In this document: positions 1 through 48,029 of the stretch, piece by piece | How the letters are laid out: each line of letters begins with the position of its first letter | How positions within the stretch are numbered: the stretch's first letter is position 1 | IMG/VR virus record: IMGVR_UViG_3300001533_002283 | Location: 1 to 64,000 of that record | Direction: 5' to 3' (one strand) | DNA: 64,000 nucleotides | Origin: a virus | Made by a program: the position numbers and the translations under genes | The notes under the pieces: generated by a model | Seen by the model: only the letters and a program-made list of their open reading frames with translations | Database searches by the model: none | What the model was told of the DNA's origin: nothing

Positions 1-182
1 GCAGATGAAAATGGACCAGTTTCGGATTTATATAGACCAGCTCTTCCCCCGCCGCCCCCTCCGCCGCCCAAATCGGATTTTTCCAAAGGGCGAAAGCCCC
101 CTGTTTCCAAATCCTTTATATACATAATCGAAGGTTCGGCGCGACCAGCATTGGGAACTGAATTGTAAATTGGGTCAGACAT
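1..182 (-). CDS. Partial hypothetical protein with poly-Gly linker (possibly virion-associated)
   Basis: ATG at 182 reads MSDPIYNSVPNAGRAEP...LGGGGGGGGEEL and is open to the window edge. Confidence 0.55.
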   Translation of the reverse strand, partial: MSDPIYNSVPNAGRAEPSIMYIKDLETGGFRPLEKSDLGGGGGGGGRAGLYKSETGPFSS

Positions 183-291
183 AAAGGTTTTTAATTAACT
201 AGCTTGACATGTAATACAGTTTTTAAGTCATTTTTTGAAAACAAAAACAAGCTTTTTATATATTAGCCTTGCCTAATCTTTTTGACTCTCC

Positions 292-1170: not shown

Positions 1171-2826
1171 TTATTCTTCTATCAGTGGCTCTAACTCTAA
1201 TTTCACAAGGGATTCATTTACAACTCTTTTTAGTTCCAACGGGTCTTCCCTCCTTAAAATTCGCGCCGACACCCCATTTTCCATCCTATCACTTTTTACA
1301 CCGTTACAATTATTAAACTCTGGTTTTAAGTTTTTATAATTCCAGCATCTATTTATGTGTTCTTGATTAGAGTGGTCAAACGCGGCGCAGGGGATTATAT
1401 GATCTATACACCATAAGGTGTTATAATTCGACCAAGACATGTCCCTTTGGAATTGAGATTCTAGGTGTTGTTTTAGGAAGGAAGGGGTGCAACCTAGCGT
1501 TTGTGAAAAAGGGTTGCTTTTCTTGTGGGATTTTAAATCCATAAATTCCATCATGCGCCTTCTTAACTTATTCCTTATTTTTACTTCTGGTTTAGCTAGA
1601 TGTTTTCTTCTAGACTCTCTTACCTTTTCTTTGTTTTGACTCGCCCATTTTAAAGTCTTTTTAAGAGCATTTTCTTTGTTTACATATTTTTGATAGGCGC
1701 ATGATTTACAGATATATTTCTTTTTATTTCTAGCTCTTTCTTGATAACTAAACAAATCAAGCGATTTTTCTTTTTCGCAACAAATACAGGTTCGCGCCCA
1801 ATTCGTTAATTCATATTTTTCTAATTCACTATTATCTTTCTTTTTTACGACTCTTTTAGTTTTTCTTCTTTCTGCCATTTCCGCTTCCCAAAGTCGCTTT
1901 TTCTCGTATTTGGCTTCCTGTTGTTTTAACCTGATTCTGTTTTTCTCTTCTTTCTTGAGCCTCAGTTGCACCTCTTTCTGTTTTTGAGCGGCCACCTTTT
2001 TCAAAGCTTTAAGTTCTTTTTGTTTGTTTTTATTTTCCTTTTCCAAAATCCTTGATTCGGTAGTTTTTGCGTTAATGATAGAATTGTTTATGTTTTCATT
2101 TTTTGAAACGCGGATGCTTTGTAAAATCTCTTTCGTTGCTTGTCCAGAGTTGACTTTTAAAAGGTTTTCGTAGAACTTTTCGCCGGTAATCCTAAACATT
2201 TCTTTCGTAATATCATAACTTTCTTTTTTCTTTATTCTGATGCCTTTTGTTTTAACTTTACCGACCATAGTAACCTCTATATTAAGAGATTTAAAGATGT
2301 TTCTATATGATATTATGTCTTTTTCAAAAAACACGCTTTTAAAAAACACGGCAGCAGATTTATCGACCGGATTGCTTTCTATTATATGGTAGGCAAATTT
2401 ATCTTTAAAATAATTGATTAAATAAAACGGGGGCTCTTGGCCAGTTATTTCGGCGGGTGAACCGCTCTTAATCTTTAACTCCTCTTTGTTAATTCTCCTT
2501 TCGCAAAAGTCAATATAGATTGGAATTAAATTCTTTTTTGCGTAGCAGTAGTTATTTACTATGTTAAACAAACTAAGAGACTTTTCTTTTCTTAGATAAA
2601 CAAAATAAGACTTTGATAAAAACCCTATGGAACCATTGCTATATTTTTTAATTAAAAGAGCGTCAGATTGATTTTTCACAGTAAAATGTGTTTGTATTCT
2701 CTTCCCATTCGCTTTAACCCCACAATGGTTATCAAATAAATAACCTAATCTATATAGCTCTTCCTCTTGTAGTTGATAATCGGTTTTTGGCGAATTGCAG
2801 TCCGGGATATTTTTAAAAAAGGTCAT
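1171..2826 (-). CDS. HNH-type homing endonuclease with degenerate LAGLIDADG-like N-terminus
   Basis: C-terminal CxxC..CxxC, DHIIPC, CWNYKNL..CN..KSD; N-terminal YRLGYLFD; Lys-rich coiled coil between. Confidence 0.7.
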   Translation of the reverse strand: MTFFKNIPDCNSPKTDYQLQEEELYRLGYLFDNHCGVKANGKRIQTHFTVKNQSDALLIKKYSNGSIGFLSKSYFVYLRKEKSLSLFNIVNNYCYAKKNLIPIYIDFCERRINKEELKIKSGSPAEITGQEPPFYLINYFKDKFAYHIIESNPVDKSAAVFFKSVFFEKDIISYRNIFKSLNIEVTMVGKVKTKGIRIKKKESYDITKEMFRITGEKFYENLLKVNSGQATKEILQSIRVSKNENINNSIINAKTTESRILEKENKNKQKELKALKKVAAQKQKEVQLRLKKEEKNRIRLKQQEAKYEKKRLWEAEMAERRKTKRVVKKKDNSELEKYELTNWARTCICCEKEKSLDLFSYQERARNKKKYICKSCAYQKYVNKENALKKTLKWASQNKEKVRESRRKHLAKPEVKIRNKLRRRMMEFMDLKSHKKSNPFSQTLGCTPSFLKQHLESQFQRDMSWSNYNTLWCIDHIIPCAAFDHSNQEHINRCWNYKNLKPEFNNCNGVKSDRMENGVSARILRREDPLELKRVVNESLVKLELEPLIEE

Positions 2827-7129: not shown

Positions 7130-7618
7130 ATGTTATCAAAAAGTGAAGATGAGATCAATGATATGCTCGCGGCCTATATTCAAAATTGCAAAAGAAGGCC
7201 CGCCGTCAGGGAATTTAAATTTTTGTCAGGACAAAGGGCTGATTTAATCTCTTACGATAGAGACGGAAATCTTATTTTAATCGAATCTAAAAAACTCGGC
7301 GACCCAAAACACCTGAAGCAATCAATAGAATCAGCTTTTGGACAAATCGTGCGTTATTGCTCGCAGAATACTTTATTAAGCCTTAATAATTCAACAATTA
7401 ATATTATTTCTGTTGACCCACCACCTTATCACCAAGTTATGAGTTATGTTAACTTTTTACGCGACAGTTTCGGGGTTCAAGTTGTTTTTTTATGCCATCA
7501 AGATATAGAAAAAATAGAAGATAGGCTTTTCCAAGGCTATAAAATCAACAAAAAGTTTATCTCCTTTCTTTCCAAAGGAAATGTCAACGCGCGGAAAATT
7601 GTATTCCAGTCAGAGTAA
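7130..7618 (+). CDS. PD-(D/E)xK restriction-endonuclease-like nuclease
   Basis: RE...RADL...LIESK...GQIVRY motif (RecB/NucS-like QxxxY). Confidence 0.7.
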   Translation: MLSKSEDEINDMLAAYIQNCKRRPAVREFKFLSGQRADLISYDRDGNLILIESKKLGDPKHLKQSIESAFGQIVRYCSQNTLLSLNNSTINIISVDPPPYHQVMSYVNFLRDSFGVQVVFLCHQDIEKIEDRLFQGYKINKKFISFLSKGNVNARKIVFQSE

Positions 7619-7720
7619 GTGTTTTTTTCTTTTGTTTTATAGGGACCACCTTCCATCCTATACCTCAATACTGTCCCCTTTCTTGACAGTTTGGCGGCCA
7701 GATTGAATAATAAGGGTAAT

Positions 7721-9130
7721 ATGGCGAGAAAAGGCATCAACTTATGGCGACAGGTTAAAACTAGAAATTTATTTGTTCTCAAGTTGGAGTGTATGGGGAT
7801 TCCAGAGAATCGTATAAAAAACACAATAGCTATTCTTCACCAGATAGTATCCCTTAAAGAGTATAATAAAAAAGGTGACAAGGTTTTTCTGAATAATGAT
7901 GGGAATGAGGTTTTTAGATTTTCTAGTAGAATTTTTAAAAAATATTTAAAAGATGATTATCCATTTATAGTTAAAACCCTGATCGACAATGGATACTTAT
8001 ATAATCACGAGTATTTTTCAATCGACGCCAAGATTCCCAAGGGTTACGGCCCAACGCATAAACTCCTATACGAAATTGAAAATTTCCAAGAGGAATATCT
8101 TAACGACTTAATCAAATCAAAATATGGAATCGCCCTCTATAAAGCCAATAAAGAGAAAAATTCGCAAATTCTTAAAACCCATGATTTTGATGACCCATTG
8201 GTTAAAAACGAATACATGGGCGAAACCGAAATAGATTTTTACACCAATTGGCCGAAAATTGAAAGGATGTTAAATCTCTTACATAAGAACAAAGCTGTTT
8301 CTAATCGAGGACATATCATAAATCTTATAGAGGGCGAGATTGATAAGAAGCGGAAAAGGAATGAGAAAACAGGCAGAATCTACACAACGTTTAATTGTAT
8401 CTCAAATATAATCCGGCGGCAGGTTAAAATCGCGGGAAAAAGTTTTGCCTTAGATATTGATATGCGGGCGTGCCATCTTTCGTTTCTAGCCGATTACCTA
8501 TATCATAAAAAGCCTAGTGAAAAACTGAGAGGGGAAAGGGATTTATGGAGAAGTATTTTTGAGAAAGACCAAGACCCGCGCGAATGGTTGGGTGTTCAGG
8601 CTGGGATAAAAGGAAGTGATTCCATATCACAAAAAAGAAAAAAACGGTTTATGAATAGCTGGATCAATGGCGGGAAATATCCGGTTTTTGATAATTACAT
8701 GAGAAAACACTGGTCGGTTCTTTATAAGGCGTGGAAAGGGTTAAATTGCAAGGTGGTAGGCAATGATATATCCCTTCACTTTGAATCGGTAATTTTCCGC
8801 TCTGATTGGCTTATAGAGCTACAAAACAAACACGATGTCGTCGCCCTCTCTACTCATGACGGCTTTTGCGTTTTTGGCGATAAAACGGCGGCAAACATAT
8901 TCTTTGAAGAGTTTCAAACGAAGGCGCGCGAGATTGCGGGGTGGGGAGTATATTTTACCAAAGACGAAGGAATCGAATTGAATATCAAAAAAGAATTGCA
9001 ATCTTTTGACATTAAGGCTTTAGACTTTTGTGATAAAAATTTACCAGAAAGGGCAGATGAGATTAAGTCTCAAAAGGAAGAATACCTCAATCGACTTGAC
9101 AAAAATGGGGTAAAACCTGATTATTCTTAA
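7721..9130 (+). CDS. Family-A polymerase palm-domain protein (TV-Pol/primase-like)
   Basis: GRIYT, motif A-like DIDMRACH, motif B-like KKRFMNSWING, motif C HDG; no exonuclease domain seen; TTGACA-17-AATAAT promoter at 7683-7711 (track start 7691). Confidence 0.6.
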   Translation: MARKGINLWRQVKTRNLFVLKLECMGIPENRIKNTIAILHQIVSLKEYNKKGDKVFLNNDGNEVFRFSSRIFKKYLKDDYPFIVKTLIDNGYLYNHEYFSIDAKIPKGYGPTHKLLYEIENFQEEYLNDLIKSKYGIALYKANKEKNSQILKTHDFDDPLVKNEYMGETEIDFYTNWPKIERMLNLLHKNKAVSNRGHIINLIEGEIDKKRKRNEKTGRIYTTFNCISNIIRRQVKIAGKSFALDIDMRACHLSFLADYLYHKKPSEKLRGERDLWRSIFEKDQDPREWLGVQAGIKGSDSISQKRKKRFMNSWINGGKYPVFDNYMRKHWSVLYKAWKGLNCKVVGNDISLHFESVIFRSDWLIELQNKHDVVALSTHDGFCVFGDKTAANIFFEEFQTKAREIAGWGVYFTKDEGIELNIKKELQSFDIKALDFCDKNLPERADEIKSQKEEYLNRLDKNGVKPDYS

Positions 9131-9478
9131 ATGACAAAGAAGATCAAAGCGTATTATATTGAAGACGTGGACTTCATGGCTCGCGTTGATTTTAATGGGA
9201 AAGTCTTTTTTGAATATGAGTATGATGAGAACAATCCTTGTATAAAGGCGATGACTCATAAAAAGTTGGTAACGATTGAGGATGGTTTTGATGATGGGGA
9301 TTTAACCGTGATGGAGCATTATCGGAATATTCTTCAAGCTTCATCGGTGGCGAAAGATGAGATTAAGAGAATTTATAACAAGTTATCTCCAATTGGGAAA
9401 AGGCGCGCGGATGGTGAATTAAAAAGAATCGAAGAGATGGTCGGAGAATATCTGAAAAGTTTTAAAAAAAGTGAATAA
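9131..9478 (+). CDS. Hypothetical protein
   Basis: Abuts the stop codon of the polymerase-like gene. Confidence 0.7.
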   Translation: MTKKIKAYYIEDVDFMARVDFNGKVFFEYEYDENNPCIKAMTHKKLVTIEDGFDDGDLTVMEHYRNILQASSVAKDEIKRIYNKLSPIGKRRADGELKRIEEMVGEYLKSFKKSE

Positions 9479-9517
9479 AAAAGCTTGTTTTCCCGCCTCA
9501 CTCTGCTATCTTTTACT

Positions 9518-9600
9518 CATCGAAGGGGCTTGCCAGCATTGCTCCCCCTGAAGAGTTGCGGAGATGAAACTCCTAGAGGTAGGGATTCGACCCTACGCGG
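9518..9600 (+). ncRNA. Candidate small RNA, copy 1 of duplicated three-hairpin motif
   Basis: Promoter 9484-9512; CATCG..GAGTTG..GGAG/CTCC..AGAG-GTAGGG/CCCTAC shared with 10361-10430. Confidence 0.55.
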
Positions 9601-9776
9601 ATTTTTTTAAGCGCGAGCCCGTTTGGATTAGTATAACATATTTTTTGATAAAACGCAAGAGTTTTTTTAAAAAAATAAAAAAATGTTATAACGCAAAAAA
9701 TCCCCAACTGACATGTTTTTTATTACACGCCAGAAGGGGAAATATGTTATAAGATAAAATCTTTTAACTTAACATC

Positions 9777-9968
9777 TTACACTTTTGACTCTTTCAAAAA
9801 ACACCAGTAGCCGGTGAGGGGATAAAACTTTTTGATTTTCATCAAATCCGCTTTTGTGCGACCAACCAATATTTTTGAAGGGATAGTGAAATTCTGAAAA
9901 GTTTTTCCGCTTGGCAAAGTGAACCCGCCGCCGGATTTATGAGGGAGAATTTGTTTTGAGTTTTTCAT
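9777..9968 (-). CDS. Hypothetical protein
   Basis: ATAACACCT leader. Confidence 0.6.
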   Translation of the reverse strand: MKNSKQILPHKSGGGFTLPSGKTFQNFTIPSKILVGRTKADLMKIKKFYPLTGYWCFLKESKV

Positions 9969-10003
9969 AGGTGTTATATTTGATTTGTTTTTAAAACAAA
10001 AAC

Positions 10004-10192
10004 TTATTCGGGAAGAGTCATCAAACGAATTTCCCGCATGCGAATGTAAACTTCTTCCGCTTGGATTTTAGTATCGGTGTGAAATTTAGAGGAGTTAAGA
10101 TAAACCATAAAGAGGGAAATTTCCTGATTAATGTTCGCCAGTTGTTTTTCAAGCCGCGCGTTCTTTTCCTGAAGCTGTTGGATATAATTCAT
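10004..10192 (-). CDS. Hypothetical protein
   Basis: CAACCACA leader; coiled-coil-like. Confidence 0.65.
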   Translation of the reverse strand: MNYIQQLQEKNARLEKQLANINQEISLFMVYLNSSKFHTDTKIQAEEVYIRMREIRLMTLPE

Positions 10193-10360
10193 TTGAGTGA
10201 GTTTCTTTTTTTGTGGTTGTTTATTGATTACCCCATTACCTTAACACCTTGCCCAAACAAATCAATCTTTTTTATTTAAATATTTTCATTCCTCTTTCGA
10301 CCAAACAAAACTTTTTTAAAAAAACTCTTGTAATTTTTATCCAGCCTGCTACCTTTTAAC

Positions 10361-10430
10361 CATCGCAAAGGCTTATTCCTTTTGCTGAGTTGAGGGATAA
10401 AACCCAAGAGGTAGGGATTCGACCCTGCAA
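10361..10430 (+). ncRNA. Candidate small RNA, copy 2 of duplicated three-hairpin motif
   Basis: Promoter 10327-10355; same motif order and spacing as 9518-9600. Confidence 0.55.
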
Positions 10431-10712
10431 GTGTTTTGCCGCGCGCGGGAACATTTGGAAAAGGGTAGCACAAAATTTTATAAAAGTCAAGAGTTTTTTT
10501 TAAAAAAGTTTCTTTTCCCTATTTTATTGTTGCAAATCAAGATTTTATAACATATGGAGATAATTAACCATAATGGGCGAAATCGGGGTATTATATCAGA
10601 TTATAGGCCAAAATCAAGCTATTTTTCCCATTTTATTTTACCCTTTTATTTCAATTTTTATTCCCAAATCTGTATAACACCCTGTTCTTTTAACACTCCC
10701 GGCTCTTTCAAT

Positions 10713-10749
10713 CCTTAACATGACAGGCTATCATGCCTTAACATGACAG
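10713..10749. repeat. 14-bp direct repeat CCTTAACATGACAG x2
   Basis: Exact copies at 10713-10726 and 10736-10749. Confidence 0.8.
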
Positions 10750-10928
10750 TTCGAGAAAAAGAAAAGGTAGATTTAAAAAAACTGAATCAATTCACGAATC
10801 AATGCTGAACCCTGTTATTATTCAGGGTAGAAAAATAAGCGGAGGTAAAACTTCACCTATACCTTAAAACGGTTCTATTTTTAGAACGACGGTTTTAGGG
10901 AAAAATTGTTTCTATTTTTATAAAAAAC

Positions 10929-11423
10929 TTACATCTTCTCAATTTCCGCCGCAAAAGTGTTAATCATAGCGCGATTAATTAACCGATAAGGAAAATAACG
11001 GAGTTCAACCGCCGCTTGTTTGTAATTTTTTGCATTAATTGCGGTGATAAATCTACTCCGATTTTTTACCACATTTTCGCCTTCTAGCACTACAAGGGTG
11101 ACAAGAATTATTTTTAAATTATGAGAGTGAGAATCGAAATTTGTAAAGATTTTTTTAGCCTCACTTTCCGCTTTTTTCACTACACTAAATGTTATATTAT
11201 CAATTTGTGAAATTGCTAAATTTTGCCCAACTTTAAATTTGTCCCCCAAACCATGTTTATCTAAATTAATTCCCGCCCCAATGGTTTTATGACCCTCCCT
11301 ATTTAACACCACAGAAGTGGTCATTTTTTCATGTTTTTTCAACGAATTATAGTAATCCGTGAAGGTTGCAGAGTGAAGATTTGCAACGGAAGCTAGCACA
11401 AAAAGAAGTATTCGAAGTTTCAT
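10929..11423 (-). CDS. Divergent T4-lysozyme-like protein with signal peptide
   Basis: Aligns by eye with 5490-5987 (HEK..NREGHKTIGAGINL, F..AI.A.NYK.A..EL); middle triad residue is N. Confidence 0.75.
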   Translation of the reverse strand: MKLRILLFVLASVANLHSATFTDYYNSLKKHEKMTTSVVLNREGHKTIGAGINLDKHGLGDKFKVGQNLAISQIDNITFSVVKKAESEAKKIFTNFDSHSHNLKIILVTLVVLEGENVVKNRSRFITAINAKNYKQAAVELRYFPYRLINRAMINTFAAEIEKM

Positions 11424-14264: not shown

Positions 14265-14350
14265 TGGTGTGCGCGGCGGGAGTCGAACCCGCACGCTTTT
14301 AAAAGCAATCGGGTTTAAGTCGATTATGGCTGCCATTACATCACGCGCAC
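14265..14350 (-). tRNA. tRNA-Leu (anticodon TAA)
   Basis: GTGCGCG/CGCGCAC acceptor, TGG D-loop, CT-TAA-AC loop, long variable arm, GGGTTCGACTCCC T-arm, encoded CCA. Confidence 0.93.
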
Positions 14351-47705: not shown

Positions 47706-48029
47706 TTATCCCTGCGCGTAAAATACCTTAACCGCCCGCTTCTTCACCTCGTCAAATTTAATACCTTCATTCTCAAATCGCCCGTCATATTCCCGGAGAA
47801 CATAAAGATCAAAGTTTAGTTCATTTGCCACGTCCTGCAACTTATCATTATCCAACGTCAAATCTAAATCGCCATACCAGATTTTTCCCTCGGCGTTAAA
47901 AACATTGGCGTTAAAAATCACCTGATTCTTAGGGTGTTTATTAACATAACCGGATTTTGAACCAGAGATCATTCGGCCAAGATTGAAACCATGTTTGGTG
48001 AAAACGTTTAGAATTTTTTCTTTATTCAT
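47706..48029 (-). CDS. Conserved hypothetical phage protein
   Basis: GRMISGSKSGY..FNAN..IWYGDLDL..LYVLRE.DGRF. Confidence 0.7.
   Translation of the reverse strand: MNKEKILNVFTKHGFNLGRMISGSKSGYVNKHPKNQVIFNANVFNAEGKIWYGDLDLTLDNDKLQDVANELNFDLYVLREYDGRFENEGIKFDEVKKRAVKVFYAQG

Follow-up and report, generated by a model that had tools for sequence, protein, structure and literature searches.

In IS10/Tn10 and in ColE1, facing sigma-70 promoters about 100 nt apart enclose a segment rich in stem-loops, and from one of the two promoters comes a small, folded RNA that codes for nothing and is fully complementary to the beginning (5′ part) of the opposing transcript; ColE1 RNA I, for example, has three stem-loops in about 108 nt. 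Phages, too, make short non-coding RNAs, such as OOP of lambda and sar of P22, each with its own promoter and a terminal hairpin and antisense to a neighbouring unit. The subject here is a pair of cassettes of ~170 bp in the DNA of an uncultured phage (IMG/VR record IMGVR_UViG_3300001533_002283). In each of them a predicted plus-strand promoter is followed by a three-hairpin block of ~78 nt (copy 1) or ~67 nt (copy 2) and then by a facing minus-strand promoter. Copy 1 lies at 9484–9675 and copy 2 at 10327–10507 of the window, by which is meant the whole stretch of DNA analyzed, the first 64 kb of a 172,181-bp phage record that is rated complete. The favoured reading, with a probability of roughly 0.4, is that the copies are compact cis-antisense RNA modules, expressed early, whose core is a three-hairpin RNA of a new family.

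The cassettes resemble the IS10 and ColE1 modules in having facing promoters around a structured segment, both of which are here predicted from the sequence. They differ from them in that there is no kinship in sequence or in Rfam and that neither a transposase gene nor a primer or origin is found downstream, and also in that the element is duplicated in a lytic T4-like phage while its sole homologue is without a facing promoter. OOP and sar differ from the block in being unrelated in sequence, in being single hairpins with defined protein-coding targets and in not being duplicated. Phage small RNAs with a facing promoter are already known as a kind of element; it is the sequence family that is new and rare.

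A further likeness is with the PeSLs, which are repeated sigma-70-like early promoters with adjacent stem-loops that flank small ORFans in plastic regions of T4-like genomes and that recombine, yielding mini-circles (PMC2839356; PMC4122927). Repeated early promoters with hairpins, direct repeats around small ORFans and a plastic region of a T4-like genome are all found here as well. PeSLs, however, are unidirectional, whereas in the cassettes facing promoters span the three-hairpin block.

Facing Early Promoters in Both Cassettes

Judged by its genes for rIIA/rIIB, an RNA ligase and a family-B DNA polymerase, the source is an uncultured, distant T4-like phage: the rIIA proteins of cultured phages are only about 26% identical, and the DNA polymerases of its nearest uncultured relatives about 44%. 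Nearly all genes are on the minus strand, and likewise the tRNA genes. An early promoter motif, aATAAAAAnnCTTG(A)nTT, about 12 nt and then TGyTAyCTT, is found at about 20 sites upstream of minus-strand genes in the first 45 kb. A position weight matrix (PWM) was trained on 14 other early promoters of the phage, from which the four cassette sites were excluded. With this matrix the plus-strand promoter of copy 1 (P1+) scores 36.4 bits, the minus-strand promoter of copy 2 (P2−) 29.7 bits, and their counterparts P1− and P2+ 26.9 and 25.0 bits, as compared with a peak of about 12 bits in a shuffled genome (fixed-spacing version of the PWM, one shuffled genome). P1+ outscores every other site in the 172 kb that was not used for training, and apart from P1+ and P2+ the plus strand has no strong member of the early class. 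By these scores all four predicted promoters are of the phage's own early type and rank among its best matches in the genome.

P1+ (9472–9512, plus strand) is composed of a UP-like element GAATAAAAAAG, a −35 CTTG at 9484–9487 and an extended −10 TGCTATCTT at 9504–9512. P1− (9630–9675, minus strand) has the −10 TGTTATACT, a 17-nt spacer, the −35 CTCTTG and a T7A7 UP element, and its start is predicted near 9623. In copy 2, P2+ (10310–10355, plus strand) has T6A7, CTCTTG and the extended −10 TGCTACCTT, and P2− (10462–10507, minus strand), which forms an inverted repeat with it, has the −10 TGCTACCCT, the −35 CTCTTG and a T6A8 UP element. Between the copies, the plus-strand promoters are identical at 4/4 positions of the −35 and 8/9 of the extended −10 and at only 5/16 of the spacer; the minus-strand promoters are identical at 17/18 positions of the −35 and UP elements and have kept the key −10 positions. 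Core elements that are kept beside a drifting plus-strand spacer are what one would expect if the promoters of both strands are under selection. The predicted starts face each other at 9519 and near 9623 (about 105 nt apart) in copy 1 and at 10362 and near 10455 in copy 2; in silico, the facing promoters would yield transcripts that overlap across the structured segment, as in cis-antisense pairs. P1− and P2− each point back across the block, and P2− points onward to ORF62-63, a unit of two small open reading frames (ORFs) between the copies.

The original prediction, on which the analysis was built, had given the coordinates of both copies, and these were borne out by direct inspection of the sequence. 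Its geometry was also correct: CTTG and CATCG are exactly 34 nt apart in both copies (regular-expression search), hairpin 3 ends at 9596 and 10428 and the minus-strand −10 begins 34 nt further at 9630 and 10462, and the inverted repeats said to flank copy 2 were confirmed (91% identity over 22 nt and 78% over 37 nt).

The Three-Hairpin Block

In copy 1 (9519–9596, plus strand) the block consists of a 5′ tail AUCGA, hairpin 1 (H1, 9524–9549), the linker GAAGAGUUGC, hairpin 2 (H2, 9560–9573), UAGAG and hairpin 3 (H3, 9579–9596). In copy 2 (10362–10428, plus strand) H1 lies at 10365–10385, with 7 bp and the loop CUUAUUC, H2 at 10394–10405 and H3 at 10411–10428. The only clear homologue was found at positions 2650–2740 of a 3.8-kb phage-like metagenome contig with 43% GC (L102). 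A covariance model of the block, R1, scores 96.8 bits with copy 1, 95.4 bits with L102 and 61.8 bits with copy 2. The 5′ edge of the block coincides with the predicted plus-strand start and its 3′ edge with H3. Behind H3 of copy 1 there are GCGGA and seven T (9597–9608, plus strand), which together are weakly terminator-like; a simple scan flags H3 with its tail as a terminator-like signal in copies 1 and 2, not in L102.

Minimum-free-energy folds reproduce the three hairpins described earlier. A long-range helix of copy 1 (z = −3.1) was discarded, as it is conserved neither in copy 2 nor in L102. In a hand-made structural alignment of the three sequences (copy 1, copy 2, and L102), the 5′ tail, both strands of H1, the loop segments CUU and UC, both linkers and H3 are of equal length in 3/3. 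The insert in the H1 loop varies (11, 12, and 2 nt in copy 1, L102, and copy 2), its long versions folding into an additional hairpin. The H2 loop (6, 18, and 6 nt, in the same order) varies as well, with an additional hairpin in L102; the H2 stem is one pair shorter in copy 2 (3 bp) than in the other two sequences (4 bp). Both sides have changed in 3/5 pairs of H1, over whose seven pairs 94.7% of the cells are paired, and in H2 one A-U pair has become G-C. The stretch AGAGGUAGGGAUUCGACCC and the CUU/UC loop bases are invariant in 3/3. These comparisons are suggestive of a block that behaves as a real structured RNA family, the sample of three members being small.

No described family accounts for the block. 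Rfam 15 at the gathering threshold yielded in the window only a tRNA-Leu at 14268–14350, and with E up to 10 the region 9300–10700 gave chance matches far under threshold, none of them on the block; in L102 there was no Rfam match at E up to 1. ARAGORN called neither a tRNA nor a tmRNA at the locus or in L102. A hammerhead or other small ribozyme was considered and rejected: the CUGANGA-like string of copy 1 is not kept in copy 2 or L102 (by eye), and there is no Rfam match. A rewired or permuted tRNA, brought to mind by the CUUAUUC loop of copy 2, was likewise rejected, as neither strand has acceptor pairing and the loop is simply CUU, insert and UC.

As had been stated at the outset, the copies have no ORF in common on either strand (ORF list and alignment, by eye). 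The small conserved toxin ORF that an antisense RNA overlaps in a type I toxin-antitoxin system is thus lacking. One frame through H3 and the right flank is free of gaps between the copies; it shows no third-position bias and has no start codon, and coding potential was rejected.

A Homologue in an Unrelated Contig

L102 and this phage have no protein in common. The contig carries small phage-like ORFs and an HNH/endonuclease VII-like gene on the minus strand, and the block lies 3 nt past the stop codon of the latter. A tRNA split by an HNH-bearing intron was considered for L102 and rejected, since upstream of the HNH gene there is no 5′ exon. L102 has a TTGACG as far from the block as the phage's −35 is, but the −10 that goes with it is poor (by eye). 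A polymerase-like gene, such as the one next to copy 1, is absent from the contig and is therefore not a feature of the family either.

Further members were searched for at several levels. In the whole 172-kb genome, neither the exact pattern nor the covariance model revealed a cassette beyond the two. In 30 polymerase-related phage records the block was found neither with BLAST nor with a pattern that allowed 3 mismatches nor with R1. IMG/VR was scanned with a 16-mer and two further degenerate patterns, with chance matches only. A scan of metagenome contigs with an 18-mer gave 13 matches, among them one true homologue (L102) and one tRNA-like sequence (L104); the same 18-mer had six chance matches in 185,579 prokaryote genomes, all in coding sequence. 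BLAST against phage and plasmid collections returned nothing but a tRNA-like gene of Erwinia phage Hena1. One of the contigs matched by chance with the 18-mer, L103, is bacterial and unrelated, and carries a c-di-AMP riboswitch at 2819–2981 (RF00379, 85.8 bits).

Repeated DNA Module or Structured RNA

The two copies are 80% identical across about 210 nt and include a direct repeat of 109 nt without gaps. The window has two occurrences of the 17-mer GGTAGGGATTCGACCCT, as against 0.1 expected, and there are no others in the entire 172-kb genome. A perfect 19-bp inverted repeat connects the right end of copy 1 (9656–9674) with the left end of copy 2 (10312–10330). Its arms, CAAGAGTTTTTTTAAAAAA and TTTTTTAAAAAAACTCTTG, enclose the ORF62-63 module, and each is associated with a promoter that fires outward (P1− and P2+). 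The arrangement is reminiscent of the termini of a small segment that can invert or move, and the direct repeats could mediate a PeSL-type excision of ORF62-63.

It is to be asked whether the cassettes are PeSL-type DNA modules for regulation or recombination, which would insulate convergent transcription and promote shuffling or excision of ORF62-63, and whose RNA products would be functionless. Two direct repeats do flank a two-ORF module with its own promoter and terminator, and the perfect inverted repeat brackets it. An early promoter consensus is repeated in a plastic region (25–36 bits for all four sites), the adjoining 10192–10929 is free of ORFs and crowded with promoters, and the terminator at 9700–9745 followed by P1− is a typical unit of stem-loop plus promoter. 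That unit is, however, the only one that fits; the block itself is not a one-directional arrangement with a terminator upstream of a promoter. Moreover, the block is kept in an unrelated contig that lacks these promoters, with compensatory changes and G·U pairs, and conservation of this kind suggests that what is selected is an RNA fold and not the repeats in the DNA. An invariant core of 20 nt amid drifting flanks is also something that recombination does not need. On balance, a purely DNA-level role is considered unlikely.

A Possible Early cis-Antisense RNA Module

If the cassettes are read as cis-antisense RNA modules, host RNA polymerase would start at P+ (A9519 in copy 1, A10362 in copy 2) and make a plus-sense RNA of about 80–90 nt, composed of the 5′ tail, H1 with its conserved CUU/UC loop, the AGUUG linker, H2, AGAG, and H3. 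This RNA would often terminate at H3 and the U-rich tail. The facing P−, about 105 nt off, would make its exact complement. In copy 2 the P− transcript would continue into the leader of ORF62-63, and in copy 1 it would enter, in antisense, the counter-oriented nuclease/polymerase-like operon (7130–9478). Collision of the promoters and pairing of the RNAs would then set the amount of minus-strand transcription that passes, in a manner like that of IS10 RNA-OUT/RNA-IN or ColE1 RNA I/RNA II.

The core of the original prediction, a non-coding RNA of ~80–100 nt with a dedicated antisense promoter, fits all of these computations in silico. The promoters are of the early class, the edges of the block fall on the predicted start and on H3, the homologue has compensatory changes, and the searches for a shared ORF, an Rfam family and a tRNA came out negative.

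It should be noted, however, that a number of observations weigh against the module as just described. The folding energies are ordinary (z between −0.3 and −2.3 for single sequences), and because the stability of the single sequences is thus unexceptional, support for the hairpins must come from comparison. As to stem covariation in homologues, there are compensatory changes in H1 of L102, but the covariation observed in H1 was reached by 32/500 shuffles. The terminator is weak, its U run beginning 5 nt after the H3 stem. L102 has no facing promoter, a simple scan shows no sigma-70 promoter upstream on its plus strand, and a strong terminator closes the plus-strand gene upstream of the block; the convergent architecture therefore belongs to this phage and not to the family. 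Two A·C mismatches of L102 become G·U pairs in the minus sense. As to what is regulated, ORF62-63 is downstream of P2− and yet also under a promoter of its own, while copy 1 has no minus-strand gene downstream of P1−, which faces only the antisense strand of the plus-strand operon. Targets in trans were sought in early leaders, where duplex energies were no better than with shuffled sequences.

The small RNAs of lytic phages are poorly catalogued, and the locus provides a clean, testable case, with a pair of paralogues and a homologue beside a homing-type nuclease. Should the module indeed control antisense transcription that enters the counter-oriented nuclease/polymerase operon or the early ORFans, control of the IS10/ColE1 style would be extended to the early programme of T4-like phages, and a functional layer would be added to the promoter/stem-loop cassettes that shuffle T4-like genomes.

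Strand Sense and Likeness to the tRNA T-arm

The question of which strand of the block is the functional one deserves separate consideration. The two G·U pairs of copy 2 suit the plus sense, whereas on the minus strand they would turn into C·A, and in this phage the plus sense accommodates every G·U pair. Taken together with the A·C mismatches of L102, the G·U evidence favours the plus strand in this phage and the minus strand in L102. For this phage the plus sense is the simpler reading, since the block starts at the predicted P+ start and ends at a terminator-flagged hairpin with a U-rich tail.

Read on the opposite strand, the invariant 20-mer has a different appearance, which the original prediction overlooked, as it also missed that the facing promoter lies outside the family: it is the reverse complement of a tRNA T-arm plus the start of the acceptor strand, one loop base short. 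H3 and linker 2 are then GUAGGG-UCGAAU-CCCUAC-CUCU, which resembles the T-arm and acceptor 3′ strand of tRNA (RF00005) and differs from it in the 6-nt loop, in the absence of the other arms and in not being called by ARAGORN or Infernal. On neither strand is there an acceptor stem, a D-arm or an anticodon arm, the loop has 6 nt and not 7, and no upstream strand is complementary to the bases after the T-like hairpin (by eye). Without an acceptor stem or an anticodon arm, the block is therefore not a tRNA. H3 may, nevertheless, derive from a T-arm or mimic one.

The remaining look-alikes of the 20-mer in the databases are only tRNA-like genes read backwards, namely L104 and phage Hena1. Beyond the 18-mer by which it was ascertained, L104 is similar to L102 with p = 0.04 and not significantly similar to copies 1 and 2. 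It is a high-GC contig, with a tRNA-Ser(CGA)-like sequence at about 60–190 (minus strand) in which the anticodon arm is intact and a CCA end and a terminator are present, while the T-loop has 6 nt and the D region is aberrant, and which is called neither by ARAGORN nor by Rfam. In Hena1 (MN732867.1 near 47920–48020; L124 about 1190–1290, minus strand) the tRNA-like gene is unannotated and lies in a tRNA cluster beside tRNA-Lys; its T-arm is canonical, it ends in CCA, one of its loops contains GCU, and it is not called by ARAGORN.

From this likeness it can be argued that the functional RNA is the minus-sense one, a tRNA-derived T-arm-like hairpin (GUAGGG-UCGAAU-CCCUAC, CCUCU) plus two hairpins. 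It would be made from P− in this phage and as the 3′ untranslated region of the HNH gene in L102, with P+ providing antisense control, and it would act as a T-arm mimic, for example as a processing or stability signal or as a decoy for a tRNA-binding enzyme. This would agree with the complementarity of the 20-mer to a T-arm and with the fact that all further look-alikes are tRNA-like, and also with the minus-strand orientation of most of the phage's genes and tRNA genes and with the strength of P1− and P2− as early promoters. In L102 the block stands 3 nt behind the HNH stop codon with no plus promoter detected and has its G·U pairs in the minus sense. Speaking against it are the lack of other tRNA arms on either strand, the negative results with ARAGORN and the Rfam tRNA model, a loop of 6 nt as compared with 7 in a T-loop, and the two C·A mismatches that copies 1 and 2 would have in the minus sense where the plus sense has G·U. 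No terminator follows H1 on the minus strand, the 5′ edge of a minus-sense block is not a predicted start, and the similarity of L104 outside the 18-mer is marginal. A minus-sense function is thus held to be improbable; if it is the T-arm-like strand that is active after all, the block would represent a minimal element of tRNA origin that has its own function.

A still more far-reaching proposal combines both strands. The block would be a horizontally mobile phage RNA family, moving between unrelated phages and settling beside nuclease genes, in which the plus-sense RNA and the minus-sense T-arm mimic are both used. Early in infection they would form a ~100-bp double-stranded RNA or a tRNA-like decoy and would engage, for example, RNase III or a tRNA-directed host enzyme of defence or processing. 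This is regarded as quite unlikely.

The Nuclease and Polymerase-Like Operon

Copy 1 abuts the plus-strand operon with a nuclease gene and a PolA-like gene, and the last codons of the operon's 115-aa gene run into the left A/T palindrome of the cassette. From this proximity the original prediction had derived a functional link, in which the block could be the RNA partner or template of the polymerase-like enzyme. In the wider form of this idea the block would be a dedicated RNA partner (guide, template, or primer) of the operon or a transcription-primed origin. With three stem-loops between promoters that face each other at about 105 nt, the layout is reminiscent of the control region of the ColE1 primer. 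The Atlas model of the 479-aa protein (7691–9130) resembles a palm-domain cluster of family-A polymerases with TM 0.47–0.57, which is a lead only. By sequence, this protein has no Pfam, PHROG, or PDB match and a single homologue, P0001, at 47% identity; scans with P0001 for its DNA locus gave no match.

The link did not hold up. Neither copy 2 nor L102 has a neighbour of this kind, and among the genes of L102 there is no homologue of the three operon proteins. The check that had been proposed, co-occurrence of the block with the 479-aa family across phages, came to nothing: among 5.8 billion proteins there is one homologue, the 30 related phages lack the protein altogether, and with a single homologue co-occurrence cannot be shown. 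An R-loop origin, which had also been suggested, is unlikely, as what follows the promoters is structured, GC-rich DNA (GC 0.57 for copy 1, 0.46 for copy 2) and the cumulative GC skew merely tracks gene orientation, without an origin signal. In T4-type R-loop origins (oriF/oriG) a promoter is followed by an AT-rich unwinding element, and none is present at either copy. A role as polymerase partner or as replication origin is therefore considered very unlikely.

The junction between operon and cassette bears on how the locus was assembled. At 9455–9478, the A/T palindrome and the UP element of P1+ supply the final seven codons of the 115-aa gene together with its stop codon. That the end of this gene is built from the cassette repeat suggests that this repeat is where the plus-strand operon and the cassette became joined.

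Other Features Around the Copies

The two small early ORFs between the copies (63 and 62 aa; 9777–10192, minus strand) belong to no Pfam or PHROG family and have a weak predicted promoter of their own near 10240–10282 (19.2 bits). The unit is closed by what reads as an intrinsic terminator at 9700–9745 (minus strand), a long hairpin followed by U6, which lies just upstream of P1− and forms with it the PeSL-like pair of stem-loop and promoter discussed above.

On the other side of these ORFs, about 740 nt (10192–10929) contain no credible ORF and may encode further small RNAs. Four tandem minus-strand promoters of the early type are found there, near 10790, 10618, 10491, and 10266, and the 14-nt sequence CCTTAACATGACAG is present as a direct repeat at 10713–10726 and 10736–10749.

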